From the sequence record PQ036202: a stretch of 64,000 bases of DNA. One strand, given 5' to 3'. Made by a program: the position numbers and the translations under genes. This document shows, in pieces, positions 5,767 to 10,182 of the stretch. Below the pieces are notes generated by a model. The model was not told the origin of the DNA, did no database searches, and saw only the letters and a program-made list of their open reading frames with translations. Every line of letters begins with the position of its first letter. The first letter of the stretch is position 1. This DNA is from Escherichia phage GEP101.

Positions 5767-5952
5767 AATACCTCTCCTATTACTGTTCACGATGTTCTAC
5801 TTCTCTGTACGTTCGTCGATAGTATATAATAAGCTGTGCTAACTCGTTGCTTTTAACATCTGAACGTAGCAGTTGCCAATCAAAACCTTTACCAACTCTT
5901 CCATATAAGCTAAATAATTTTACTTTGCGTTTCATTTTGGTACTCCCAATAC

Positions 5953-6180
5953 TCAGAGGCCAATGCTAATACGTTCACCCTTGAGGACTCCTGTACGGTC
6001 TCTTGCAATCTTACCGTCAACAATAAGGATATGCGCAGACTTTAAAGATTCACTATTAAAACCTTTTACGAACTTACTAGGCATCACCACAATAAGCATC
6101 TCTTGAATCAACTCTGGAGTATAGCAATTGTCGTGAAGTTGCTGAATAACGTCTGCAAGTGTCATTTTTGATGTCTCCAA
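5953..6180 (-). CDS. hypothetical protein
   Basis: 75-aa ORF. Confidence 0.4.
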   Translation of the reverse strand: METSKMTLADVIQQLHDNCYTPELIQEMLIVVMPSKFVKGFNSESLKSAHILIVDGKIARDRTGVLKGERISIGL

Positions 6181-6371
6181 TACTCAATATCAATAAGTTC
6201 TTGTGCAATGCTTTTCAGATTACCTTTCAAGAAAACCTTCTCAGAACCTGAAAGAGATGAATTGTCAATTAACCTGTTCATTCTCTCAAACAACTTCTGC
6301 TTACGATTCTTGATAGTTTCCTTTGAAGCCCCTTTCATCATTGCTGCATGGGTTCTTCCACGGTGGCTCAT
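6162..6371 (-). CDS. hypothetical protein
   Basis: 69-aa basic ORF. Confidence 0.4.
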   Translation of the reverse strand: MSHRGRTHAAMMKGASKETIKNRKQKLFERMNRLIDNSSLSGSEKVFLKGNLKSIAQELIDIEYWRHQK

Positions 6372-6422
6372 AAGACCTCCTATATAAGATATTGTATAAG
6401 GTACTCTTCCCTGAGCACCTTG

Positions 6423-6956
6423 TCAAGATAGTTTTGCAAACTCTCCGTGGAGTTTAATAGCAGCTTCACAGTAAGCTTTATGGGCTTCTTCTGGTGTGTC
6501 ATGATAACCTAAAAACATCTTCTTACCTTTATAACTTATCTGTGCGACCCACTTACCAGACTTCTTCTTAAGACTTACACCCTTGTACCCAGATTTATTG
6601 GTGACTGGTTTACCTTTATTCCAAGCACTTTGAAAGTCATCTGCTTCCCTTAAGTTTACAATCCTGTTGTCAAGTGAGTCTCCGTTGATATGGTCAATGA
6701 TACCTTTTGGCATCTTGCCATACACGTAAAGCCATGCGAGTCTGTGTGCTTTATGTGCTTTCTTGTCAAAATAGATACTAACCTGTTTATGACCACTTGA
6801 ATCAGTCTGGATATTACCTGCCACCTTTCCTGCATAATTACTGTTAAAAACACTAACAGCTCTTGATTTACCTTCTCTACGAAGCCAAGTAAAGACCCCT
6901 GTTTCGGGGTCATAGTGCAGCAGCTCCTTTAAACGTTTTTGTAAAATTAAATCCAT
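6423..6956 (-). CDS. HNH homing endonuclease with AP2-like DNA-binding domain
   Basis: HNH motif IDHINGDSLDNRIVNLR; AP2-like segment GYKGVS...KWVAQISYKGKKMFLGYHDTPEEAHKAY; starts 3 nt after DNA polymerase stop. Confidence 0.75.
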   Translation of the reverse strand: MDLILQKRLKELLHYDPETGVFTWLRREGKSRAVSVFNSNYAGKVAGNIQTDSSGHKQVSIYFDKKAHKAHRLAWLYVYGKMPKGIIDHINGDSLDNRIVNLREADDFQSAWNKGKPVTNKSGYKGVSLKKKSGKWVAQISYKGKKMFLGYHDTPEEAHKAYCEAAIKLHGEFAKLS

Positions 6957-6959
6957 TAA

Positions 6960-7519
6960 TCAATGTACCTCATACCAGCTCTTACCAACCTTTGCTGTAC
7001 CAGTTACAAGTGTTTCTTTCCTCAAACCTAAGTTTTTTGAAGCTTGTCCATACATCCAGTCAGCAATTGCTTTCATATCATGTGTCATACCCTCTGGACA
7101 TTCCCAACTATTTTCATCGTGATATGCCAGAAGTAACCTTGCTCCGATAGCTGGTTTTCGAGCATTCAGTTTTGTCAGGCCATCTTCACAGGCTTTTCTT
7201 GCTGCTAGGTTGATGGCCTCATTCTGAATCTGTGCTTCCGAACTCATCAGGAGGTAGTTCAGTAGTTTATGTGGAGATTTGCACCATATCCATGCTCCAG
7301 CGACCCTGATATAACCACCTTTAGCAATTGAAGAGTTCTTCCCAAAAACCTCTTCCAGAGCCTTTTTAGACACCTTAAAATCAGCTTCTAAGCTATCAAG
7401 TAACTTCTTAATCTTTGGCAAACGCATATAGTAAGTTTGTTTAGTCAATGCACCTTCTTCCGTAGATGATGCCTTGATAGTTTTTGCAAACTTCTCATCG
7501 CCAGCCCCGAACAATACAT
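6960..7519 (-). CDS. DNA polymerase I (family A), exon 2
   Basis: Encodes ...VLFGAGDEK (end of motif B) and motif C YHDE; first in-frame codon after proposed 3' splice site at 7519. Confidence 0.75.
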
Positions 7520-7790
7520 CTGGTCAATACACTCGCAAGGTGTACCAGTTCTCTTATGAACTTCTCCGCATTTCTACGGAGTGTCGGACTATATCACGTA
7601 GCAGTGATGCTACCGTTGCACTTGGGGATGGCCATTAGCTTACCACCCTACTCTACTCAGTTCATACATTAAGTATGCTTTTCGATAGTCTCTGAACGTT
7701 CCTCTTAAGAGGCTTCGCTGCTGATTACCATATCTTTCCAGACTTAGGCTTCCAGCAATTCACAACGTTTTACATGCGCCACTGACGCAT
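7520..7790 (-). mobile_element. group I intron (ORF-less, 271 nt) in DNA polymerase gene
   Basis: Interrupts motif B between ...KNGIY and VLFGAGDEK; exon ends in U, intron ends in G; P1 pairing U|AUGCG with CGCAUG; consensus-like P/Q/R/S elements AAUUGCUGGAAG, AAUCAGCAGC, GUUCAGAGACUA, GAUAUAGUCC. Confidence 0.75.
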
Positions 7791-9960
7791 AAATGCCATT
7801 TTTGGCTTTCTTACGACCTTTTGTAATCTCGTGAAGAAGCTCCTCATCCTGCGTCTCCCTACAACGAACAATATCATCTTCCTTGTTTAGACCAAAGTAA
7901 ATACTATTCAGTGTATGTGCATCAGTACCTGTGTAGACTTCGTAGAGGTCATTCTCAGCATCATAACGAAGATACTTATCAGTTTCTGGATTGAGGTACT
8001 TATCGAGATGCTTGCAATAGTATCTTCCATCCTCTTGCTTGGTAAATTCTACTGACTCTTTACCTTCAGTTACCGCTTTGGTGAAGTCTTTATCACCCAT
8101 AAAGTTACACAGTAAAACAAGCTGTGCAGAGTTCTGGTCAACTGAAACGATATTAGTCCCTTCCTCGCAAATCCACACCTCCCTCATAGGTGCTCCATAG
8201 ACAGCAGCACCAGACGGTACGTTTACAATACCATATTGTGTCATACGTCCAGTTGAAGTACCAAATACCATTGCACCGGCACTAAGGCGACCATCAGGGC
8301 GAATCTGGTTCAACCAACCTTTTTCATCATCCTTTGAGTTCTCAATAGTTCTACGTCGGTGCATCAAAGTGTAGTATTTCGCAATCTTCTGTCCAAGCTC
8401 ACCTTCAATCGTATCATAAGATGATTCAGTAAGTTTTGGTGAAGTACGGATTAAGCAAGGCTCAAGCAAATCTGTGTACTTCTTCACAGACCAGTTATGC
8501 TCAATGTACTGGACACCTTCATGTTCAACATAACTCAAACCACACCGTTCCACCATCTCATCCCACTTAGGATGCTTTGTAATCATCTTTTTGTTGTCTT
8601 TGAAACGACAAACTTTGACAGGACGACCGTCAGAGTCTTTCTTGTAGTTCCAGTCATCTGGAATCCAACCAACTGATTTCAAGTAGTCTTTAACAACTGC
8701 TACCTGAGTCATACGAGAAACTTCGAACTCAATTGGTGTATATGGTGCATCAATCAAACCTGTGTAGCGACTTGACTCAAGCTCAAAGTGGTTAACGACA
8801 TGGCTGTTATAGTACTTCACAGTTTTAACTGTTTTTACTGGCTTCCAGTCTTTGCACTTCTTACCAATCTTTGCATTCAACTCATTGCAAATTGCACGAG
8901 CATCCTTCATTGCTACAAAACCTTCCTTGTACTCTTCACCAGTTACAGAGTTGGTTGGTGTATAGCAATTCCGCTTTTCAATGTTAAAAATCTTTGTAGT
9001 TGGCTTACCAAATGGCTTGATTTCATATGTCTGCATCTCACCGTTACGTACCTGTTGACGATACTTTGTCTTAGGGTACTTGGTAATTCTTTTCAGTCCA
9101 TCTGCATGACCAAATGCTTCAACATACTCATTCCAAGCTTTTGCAAACTCTTCTCCAGTGACTTTACCTTTGGTCTTAATAGTTGGAGGAAGATGTGGTT
9201 CAACTTCTGAAGCAAGCTCATTAGTCAACTTGTCAAGTTCCTTTACATGAAACTCCATAAGCTCTTTATCAGCTTTCCAACCATTGATAGCCTGTTGACT
9301 CATCCAGAAAGATGTTTCTTTAGCTCGCATGTAAGTCTCATAAGTGTCTATACCACACTTCTTAAGCTTGAGATACTCGTTATCAAGTGCCCGTTTAGTT
9401 TTGGCGTTGATACGGATATCTTCCACAACACGAGTGAAGATTTCTGCATTCCACACACCCCAATGTTCAATCTCTGGTTTACGGACACCAACACGAGCAC
9501 CCCATGCTGCCAAGCCATGAGCACCTTTATAGCCCTTTGGAGTTGGTCTATCCATCCACTGAACACGAGACTGGATAAGAGAATCCTGAAAGAAATTACT
9601 CCACGGCTTACACTTTGGATTATCAAAGTTCCACAAATCAGGTGCAATGTGGTTGAAAACCCACCAGTCATAACCGAGACCGTTATGGATGCAAAGACGT
9701 TTTGCCTTTAACGCAAACTCAACACCTTCACGCAAACCACCCTTAATGTACTTGGTGTACTTGTGACCGAGGATAGGCTCATCTGTAAAGACCCATACAG
9801 GTGGCTCTTCATCGTCAGATTTATAGTCTGCGAAAGCCATGACGTGTACTTTAGTGAACTCAAGGAGTAAACCATCAGTTTCTGTATCACCAACTAAGTG
9901 TAAGTTTTTAAAATCTACGTTTTCCATTTCTACTCCCTCTAAATCATTAACCACATACAT
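7791..9960 (-). CDS. DNA polymerase I (family A) with 3'-5' exonuclease domain, exon 1
   Basis: Exo I motif DTETDG near N-terminus; motif B start RKKAKNGIY at exon end; track ORF 7744..9960 is read-through into intron. Confidence 0.8.
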
Positions 9961-9985
9961 TACTGCAAAAAATTATAAAAAGCAA

Positions 9986-10012
9986 GTTGACAATGTACTT
10001 GACAAGGTGTTA
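9986..10012 (+). promoter_or_regulatory. tandem TTGACA element (GTTGACAA-N6-CTTGACAAGGTG), putative early promoter
   Basis: Two TTGACA hexamers 12 bp apart in the divergent intergenic region; same architecture at 46825 and 57046. Confidence 0.4.
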
Positions 10013-10182
10013 ATCTTTGCGAAGTGGGTTTTTACTTAAAAGGTTACTTAACAGTTTAACTATACAGATACTTTAAAACTCTTAAAAGATTATTTAATAG
10101 CTTTTAAAAGTTTTAAAGTATAACGTATAGAATACGTTAAGATAAAAGATTAAAACTTAATAGTTACTTAAAAGAGGCTTAC

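Follow-up and report, generated by a model that had tools for sequence, protein, structure and literature searches.

In phage T4, the free-standing HNH enzyme MobE cuts away from the insertion site of an adjacent intron and mobilises that intron by co-conversion (PMC2790892). Inheritance of the T4 nrdB intron, the endonuclease of which (I-TevIII) is defunct, is MobE-dependent and has been termed 'trans homing' (Wilson & Edgell 2009, PMC2790892), and co-conversion in T4 reaches up to ~2 kb (PMC2790892). A second arrangement is that of cyanophage S-PM2, in which F-CphI, as summarised in PMC6083498, cuts intron-less psbA at the insertion site while the intron prevents self-cleavage (Zeng, Bonocora & Shub 2009). 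Endonucleases that combine HNH and AP2 domains have been known since 2004 and, in the summary of that work given in PMC4237383, are named from Felix O1, RB49, Trichodesmium and Tetrahymena (Magnani et al. 2004). Phage family-A polymerase genes are the home of a further group, the intron-encoded HNH nicking endonucleases I-HmuI, I-HmuII, I-BasI, I-PfoP3I and I-TslI; the I-PfoP3I and PhiI/W31 introns hold their ORF in a P6-type stem, and the reported phage polymerase intron sites correspond to E. coli Pol I positions 674, 676 and 881 (PMC3428280).

The stretch of DNA analysed here (the window) comprises 64,000 nucleotides of Escherichia phage GEP101 (sequence record PQ036202). Its region 5900-10100 was matched by 260 phage records at 80-99% identity, nearly all of them from Felixounavirus, the genus to which the window belongs. 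Felixounavirus comprises Felix O1-like myoviruses that infect Salmonella, E. coli and Shigella, and the genus is in wide use for typing and biocontrol. In the window, a gene for a protein with HNH and AP2 domains follows a DNA polymerase gene that is interrupted by a group I intron. In our reading, to which we give a probability of roughly 0.6, this gene at the 3' end of the polymerase gene encodes a homing endonuclease that is free-standing and independent of the intron; the intron, at a distance of 557 nt, is probably mobilised by it through co-conversion, as in trans homing.

The comparative set consisted of 38 related loci, 16 from IMG/VR and 22 from GenBank. Because IMG/VR yielded merely 16 related loci, a census was built on GenBank phage records and the 22 fetched regions, using designed synthetic and chimeric BLAST sequences as queries for GenBank. 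The census counts rest on samples of GenBank records, and the genomes in them are non-independent samples. Loci carry labels, among them L003 (MBP4696116), L004 (D1-2), L010 (UAB_Phi87), L021 (GEC_vB_B1), L024 (Felix O1), L025 (tootiki), L029 (VpaE1) and L030 (Tribble). A neighbour-joining tree of the 5' 1.7 kb of the polymerase gene was star-like, with character states scattered over it and rampant mosaicism, which made a formal phylogenetic correction of the association between intron and endonuclease impossible. The features of the region are listed in Table 1.

Table 1. Features at the polymerase-endonuclease locus of the window, in window coordinates.
Feature	Position	Strand	Basis
Conserved motif TTGACAAGGTGCTCAGGG, downstream edge of the insertion; endonuclease stop TGA lies within TTGACA	6409..6426	(-)	Conserved among relatives
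Free-standing HNH_3 + AP2 homing endonuclease gene, 'type A' of four	6423..6956	(-)	Pfam, PHROG, annotation of relatives
GC-rich hairpin GACCCCGAAACAGGGGTC inside endonuclease codons YDPETGV	6894..6911	(-)	Terminator-like match
Polymerase stop TGA (6960-6962) and 3-nt spacer TTA (6957-6959), upstream edge of the insertion	6957..6962	(-)	Read from sequence
Family-A DNA polymerase, exon 2	6960..7516	(-)	Pfam DNA_pol_A; colinear with the intron-less polymerase genes of bumzen and Felix O1
ORF-less group I intron, 268 nt, in O-helix / motif B codons (KNGIYA/LLFGAG)	7517..7784	(-)	Rfam RF00028, relatives
DNA polymerase, exon 1; start at 9960 (relatives annotate an ATG at 9927)	7785..9960	(-)	ORF, spliced product

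The endonuclease ORF begins with ATG and encodes 177 aa. Its product matched Pfam HNH_3 (PF13392) at aa 69-104 (54.4 bits against a gathering score of 24.8; E = 9e-15) and, toward the C-terminus, Pfam AP2 (PF00847) at aa 122-171 (47.2 bits against 33.3; E = 3e-12), and the ORF also matched PHROG 99, 'HNH endonuclease' (2e-72). In the relatives that matched best, the gene is labelled 'HNH endonuclease', 'homing endonuclease' or 'HNH endonuclease motif protein', and its CDS sits between two CDSs that are both annotated 'DNA polymerase'. The gene itself is ordinary and is already annotated in dozens of GenBank Felixounavirus records. A search of PDB sequences with the endonuclease returned plant AP2/ERF domains (WRI1, 3.5e-7) and no solved HNH_3-AP2 endonuclease. 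Read on the minus strand, the junction is ...GAG GTA CAT TGA TTA ATG GAT..., in which 3 nt separate the polymerase stop from the HNH start. This reading and the two Pfam domains bear out the statement of an earlier note on this DNA that a free-standing HNH-AP2 gene starts 3 nt after the polymerase stop and outside the intron. With its ATG this close behind the stop, the endonuclease would probably be translated from the polymerase transcript.

The motif DH..G..N..NLR is invariant in all four of the endonuclease types described below, so that the catalytic HNH motif is kept, and dN/dS within types is 0.09-0.25. The gene is intact, under purifying selection and, as far as can be judged from such features, apparently functional. 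The motif at its 3' edge, TTGACAAGGTGCTCAGGG, may be the -35 box of a promoter for the downstream genes; a sigma-70 scan called no promoter there, so its designation as a promoter was dropped and we describe it as a conserved promoter-like motif and no more. Within the 5' part of the gene, the GACCCCGAAACAGGGGTC hairpin is followed by a T-rich stretch (6885-6914 (-), codons YDPETGVFTW), and the ~36 nt around the hairpin are 94-97% identical to other HNH genes elsewhere in related genomes. A transcript-limiting element has been reported in the coding region of T4 mobE (PMC2790892).

The earlier note was also right that the window holds a second HNH gene among its tRNA genes. This ORF, which runs from 61076 or 61121 to 61468 (+) and encodes 115-130 aa depending on the start chosen, matched the HNH endonucleases of PHROG 2255 (6e-40) and, weakly, Pfam HNH (E = 0.0085). 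It has no AP2 domain and is unrelated, also in architecture, to the polymerase-adjacent gene. The surrounding tRNA array (59230-63794 (+)) gave 22 Rfam tRNA matches, two of which, at 61024-61102 and 61702-61789, flank the second HNH ORF and score barely above the gathering score. As a separate observation, four relatives (tootiki, GEC_vB_B1, D1-2 and Tribble) have an ORF of 192-219 nt directly upstream of, and overlapping, the DNA ligase gene, and this ORF is annotated either 'DNA ligase' or hypothetical.

That the adjoining polymerase gene contains an intron, as the earlier note had also stated, was confirmed by a match to the Rfam group I intron model RF00028 (62.1 bits against a gathering score of 50), the one such match in the window, and by an element of 268 nt without an ORF. 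The limits of the intron were taken from alignment with intron-less relatives, using the uninterrupted polymerase of bumzen. The boundaries of the Rfam match itself (7564-7847) were rejected in favour of this alignment; the match is shifted ~60 nt to the 5' side of the true intron and misses the last 47 intron nt. The covariance model had placed exon codons in P1/P2, so boundaries drawn from the Rfam match alone would be wrong. Splicing out of the 268 nt is predicted to give a polymerase ORF of 910 aa with a single terminal stop. P1 can be formed between AUGCGU at the end of exon 1 and GCGCAU in the intron, with a U.G pair at the 5' splice site, and P10 between CAGUG at the intron start and UAUUG in exon 2; the last base of the intron is G. 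The element is precisely absent from bumzen, Felix O1 and other relatives. Together, its score, U.G pair, terminal G, P1/P10 pairings and precise absence mark it as a predicted group I intron. By alignment to RRSAKAINFGLIYG, the insertion point presumably corresponds to about residues 763/764 of E. coli Pol I, in the O-helix. From the 3' end of the intron to the polymerase stop the distance is 557 nt.

A BLAST search with the 268-nt intron found it in ~96 Felixounavirus records and in three forms: the 268-nt ORF-less form, a form of 780-805 nt with an ORF in P6, and a form of 311 nt. The ORF of the 780-805 nt form lies in the P6 loop, encodes 160 aa and matched Pfam Endonuclease_7 (1e-19). In sibling phages, an intron 97% identical to that of the window carries its own ORF of this Endonuclease_7 family, which makes the intron an independent element with a canonical mobile form. 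The core intron haplotypes are common to the ORF-less and ORF-containing forms. All intron alleles have GCGT/TATTG at the junction, the sequence that forms P1 and P10, in wider exon flanks that are mosaic, and the exon flanks of one intron allele differ from intron-less alleles at just five positions. A shared junction in mosaic exon backgrounds indicates that the intron has moved among backgrounds. The 311-nt form (L023, L028 and L038) keeps the final codons (..LSK and the stop) of the Endonuclease_7 ORF and shows an apparent deletion between short GACT(A/C)CCTAA repeats; the retained codons identify it as a deletion derivative. The intron ORF of VpaE1 is frameshifted by a 22-nt deletion. By their sequences, the 311-nt form and the VpaE1 ORF look like snapshots of the decay of the intron-encoded endonuclease.

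The endonuclease gene lies outside any intron or intein, and among close relatives it shows a clean presence/absence polymorphism at a fixed site. From the polymerase stop to TTGACAAGG, the distance is 6 nt in the 10/38 loci that lack the endonuclease and 481-534 nt in the 28/38 that bear it. At this point the sequence of endonuclease-less relatives is CAC TAA TTAGTA TTGACAAGG, and in the 28 endonuclease-bearing loci the insertion lies exactly between the polymerase stop and TTGACAAGGTGCTCAGGG, with the endonuclease stop within TTGACA. Four types of insert occupy this one site: A (177 aa, as in the window), B (171 aa), C (183-187 aa) and D (167 aa). They are mutually 39-53% identical at the amino acid level and all have HNH_3 and AP2 domains. 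Type D is ORF95 of Felix O1, which occupies the same site after the polymerase gene and is 47% identical to type A of the window. Two type-A alleles are pseudogenes, one through a W-to-stop change (MBP4696116) and one through a frameshift (D1-2). The last 72 nt of the insert (6426-6497 (-) in the window, with the equivalents in L008, L009 and Felix O1) are 89-99% identical in DNA across the four divergent types, and may serve as a homology arm for cassette exchange or as an overlapping regulatory element for the downstream genes.

The flanking polymerase sequence carries a trace of exchange. Divergence between intron-plus and intron-less genomes is 0-1% over the type-A cassette and the adjoining ~370 nt of the polymerase 3' end, compared with 2-5% in the background, and this low-divergence patch ends ~190 nt downstream of the intron insertion site. 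Type-B cassettes follow a type-A-like 3' end of the polymerase gene, and the switch falls ~20 nt upstream of its stop. The recombination boundaries of the cassettes are found at the polymerase stop rather than at the intron site. The precise insertion/deletion, the four types, the near-constant 3' 72 nt and the low-divergence patch are signatures of a free-standing homing endonuclease, with gene-conversion events that appear to be anchored at the polymerase stop.

On a wider scale, nucleotide identity among Felixounaviruses ranges from 73 to 100% in the 3' third of the polymerase gene (~6960-8130 (-) in the window), which begins ~350 nt before the intron site and extends to the stop; between 400 and 1000 nt before that site, identity is a uniform 95-97%. 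This mosaic hot spot is bracketed by the intron and the endonuclease cassette.

Every endonuclease type (A-D) occurs both with and without the intron. Approximately 57 GenBank records have type A or A', and 32 of these have the intron, which leaves ~40% with an uninterrupted polymerase. Type A at 97-99% amino acid identity lies downstream of an uninterrupted polymerase in bumzen, L005 and L007, and L015 and L016 are other intron-less examples of type A/A'. At the insertion site, intron-less carriers of types B and C are identical to endonuclease-less genomes or differ from them at 1-2 positions in the 105 nt around the site. The insertion-site allele of intron-less type-A carriers departs, synonymously, at ~9/30 positions from that of endonuclease-less genomes. 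In the sampled loci and records, no endonuclease-less genome had a type-A-like haplotype at the insertion site or in exon 2.

The form of the intron, on the other hand, is associated with the presence of the cassette. Among the best 60 of 94 intron-bearing records, the HNH-AP2 gene was found in 26/26 phages with ORF-less introns, whereas phages with ORF-containing introns had it in 7 cases and lacked it in 17 (Fisher p = 4e-8, or 6e-6 with near-identical isolates collapsed, kinship being otherwise uncorrected). A chimeric BLAST query was built to give a one-piece match to any genome that combines an ORF-less intron with the absence of the endonuclease, and no such match occurred in the same best 60 of 94 records. 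In a systematic sample, the HNH-AP2 gene accompanied 11/11 ORF-less introns, 1/6 ORF-containing introns and 14/25 intron-less Felixounavirus rows; the corresponding counts for the fetched loci were 14/14, 2/6 and 12/18. ORF-less introns occur with all four cassette types. The combination that is missing is an ORF-less intron without a downstream endonuclease. In addition, the window, MBP4696116, D1-2 and L006 have in common a near-identical block of ~1.6-1.8 kb that contains intron and cassette and runs from ~300-450 nt upstream of the intron to the end of the endonuclease gene, within a polymerase 5' region that is 3-5% divergent.

We propose the following mechanism for this pattern. The HNH-AP2 gene would be a selfish element that the phage can dispense with, a cassette with its insertion point exactly between the polymerase stop and TTGACAAGG. 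Its enzyme most likely cuts endonuclease-less genomes, or genomes with another cassette type, near its own insertion point at the polymerase 3' end; the mosaic boundaries point to a target site close to the polymerase stop. By repair of the double-strand break, the cut genome would then receive a copy of the cassette and of the DNA flanking it. The 268-nt intron is a separate element, an ORF-less member of a family that otherwise encodes an Endonuclease VII-type enzyme in P6. It is non-autonomous and lies 557 nt from an apparently functional endonuclease gene, which is within the ~2 kb limit of co-conversion in T4 (PMC2790892). Because the intron is well inside the normal co-conversion range, the HNH-AP2 gene probably takes it into new genomes as a passenger, with no cut at the intron insertion site. 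The coupling would be loose, since the type-A cassette has been moved or retained without the intron. A passenger relationship of the MobE kind is plausible on these sequence comparisons. A further claim, that the ORF-less polymerase intron survives and spreads solely as a passenger of whichever of the four HNH-AP2 cassettes is present, and that introns in cassette-free genomes need their own Endo VII-type enzyme, is tentative, and we rate it at somewhat less than even odds. The complementary distribution could also arise without benefit to the intron, since efficient HNH-AP2 homing would convert endonuclease-less alleles in any infection shared with an endonuclease-bearing phage and so make endonuclease-less recombinants with an ORF-less intron rare anyway.

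Of the other explanations, the one that survives best holds that there is no functional link: two selfish elements, each independent of the other, would by chance have come to lie 557 nt from one another in a region that is hypervariable and prone to recombination, the ORF-less intron being a decayed Endo VII-encoding intron that the HNH-AP2 enzyme mobilises to no meaningful degree. It gains from the existence of all combinations of endonuclease type and intron state except one, from the ongoing decay of the intron-encoded endonuclease that is seen in the 311-nt form and the frameshifted VpaE1 ORF, from the occurrence of the type-A patch in intron-plus and intron-less genomes alike, and from the general mosaicism of the polymerase 3' third (73-100% identity, compared with 95-97% further upstream). 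The one exception is what it explains poorly. The ORF-less intron without endonuclease is absent (26/26 phages among the best 60 of 94 records; p ~1e-6 to 1e-8), yet endonuclease-less genomes make up ~45% of the intron-less Felixounavirus rows and ~70% of the phages with ORF-containing introns. Moreover, the block of intron and endonuclease is intact across backgrounds, and co-conversion over 557 nt is to be expected from known phage homing biology (PMC2790892). We consider the absence of any link unlikely.

Far less probable is the strict form of collaborative homing, in which intron-less polymerase alleles are recognised and cut by the HNH-AP2 enzyme, at the insertion site or close to it, and in which the intron, by interrupting that site, protects its carrier. 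The earlier note had called the placement of the gene consistent with collaborative homing; the gene order is that of F-CphI and the psbA intron of S-PM2, and this arrangement stands, as does the finding that the sampled ORF-less introns always occur alongside an HNH-AP2 gene. Protection by the intron does not agree with the data, since types A, A', B, C and D all coexist with an uninterrupted polymerase, in the case of A/A' in ~40% of carriers (57 records, 32 with the intron), and the insertion site of intron-less type B and C carriers is the same as in endonuclease-less genomes or 1-2/105 nt off. The divergent, synonymous allele of intron-less type-A carriers (~9/30 positions) leaves a resistant site as an option for type A alone. 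Cassette boundaries at the polymerase stop, a type-A patch that ends ~190 nt short of the intron site, and the Endo VII-type endonuclease that the intron family has of its own in sibling phages all argue further against the strict form. What remains of the proposal that the endonuclease mobilises the adjacent intron is its looser, co-conversion version, which has support at the population level.

The least probable alternative, that the HNH-AP2 protein has been domesticated for exclusion of competitor phages or as an AP2-based regulator of the downstream genes and that its adjacency to the polymerase is unrelated to homing, can draw on the purifying selection (dN/dS 0.09-0.25), the 89-99% identity across types of the last 72 nt abutting TTGACAAGG and the match of the AP2 domain to plant DNA-binding transcription factors, but it is opposed by the retention of the catalytic HNH motif and by the hallmarks of a dispensable mobile cassette, namely presence/absence polymorphism, four competing types, pseudogenes in viable phages and 10/38 loci without the gene.

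The comparative picture, rather than the gene itself, is what has some value. Within ~2 kb, these phages have three forms of an intron and a cassette site with four endonuclease types and an empty state, and one combination is missing. The region of intron and cassette explains the polymerase 3' third as a mosaic hot spot. If the further claim, of an ORF-less intron that persists solely as a passenger, is true, the locus would be a natural, population-scale demonstration of a partnership between intron and free-standing endonuclease. Sequenced phages, among which every intermediate state is found, would then offer a ready system for testing the gain and loss of endonucleases by mobile introns. 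If the missing class reflects endonuclease-dependent persistence of ORF-less introns, trans homing and collaborative homing could be put to the test in simple crosses of these phages of E. coli and Salmonella, which grow easily. Our literature searches did not find the relationship between the Felixounavirus polymerase intron and the HNH gene described; one paper on phage SPJ41 merely mentions 'two introns' and variable HNH genes.

The locus shares features with each of the known systems. Like the intron-encoded enzymes of the I-HmuI group, it involves group I introns in conserved motifs of phage family-A polymerase genes that are, or would be, mobilised by enzymes of the HNH superfamily. Unlike those introns, that of the window presumably lies at ~763/764 in the O-helix rather than at 674, 676 or 881, it has no ORF, and the ORF of its siblings is of the Endonuclease_7 family. 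The endonuclease has the same HNH and AP2 architecture as the enzymes of Felix O1, RB49, Trichodesmium and Tetrahymena. It differs from ORF95 of Felix O1 in being type A rather than type D, and the two are merely 47% identical although they occupy the same site. We know of no member of this HNH-AP2 group with a mapped cleavage site.

The resemblance to F-CphI and psbA is one of layout, with an ORF-less group I intron in an essential gene and a free-standing endonuclease gene immediately adjacent. The two differ in that the endonuclease of the window often coexists with an uninterrupted polymerase and its mosaic boundaries suggest a target at the polymerase stop. They also differ in domain content; F-CphI has an Endo VII motif, whereas the free-standing gene here is HNH_3 + AP2 and Endonuclease_7 is the family of the enzyme encoded within the introns of sibling phages.

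For MobE and nrdB of T4, crosses and nick mapping established the case, whereas the present one is known from sequence alone. The window intron has lost its ORF entirely, and that of T4 carries a defective one; the window endonuclease, unlike MobE, has an AP2 domain, lies downstream of the interrupted gene and belongs to one of four types that compete for the site. In both phages, a free-standing gene of the HNH family lies beside a gene interrupted by a group I intron that lacks the means of its own mobilisation. As with MobE, the route proposed here is co-conversion, for which the intron, at 557 nt, is within recombination distance, and the pattern in the phage population fits this proposal.
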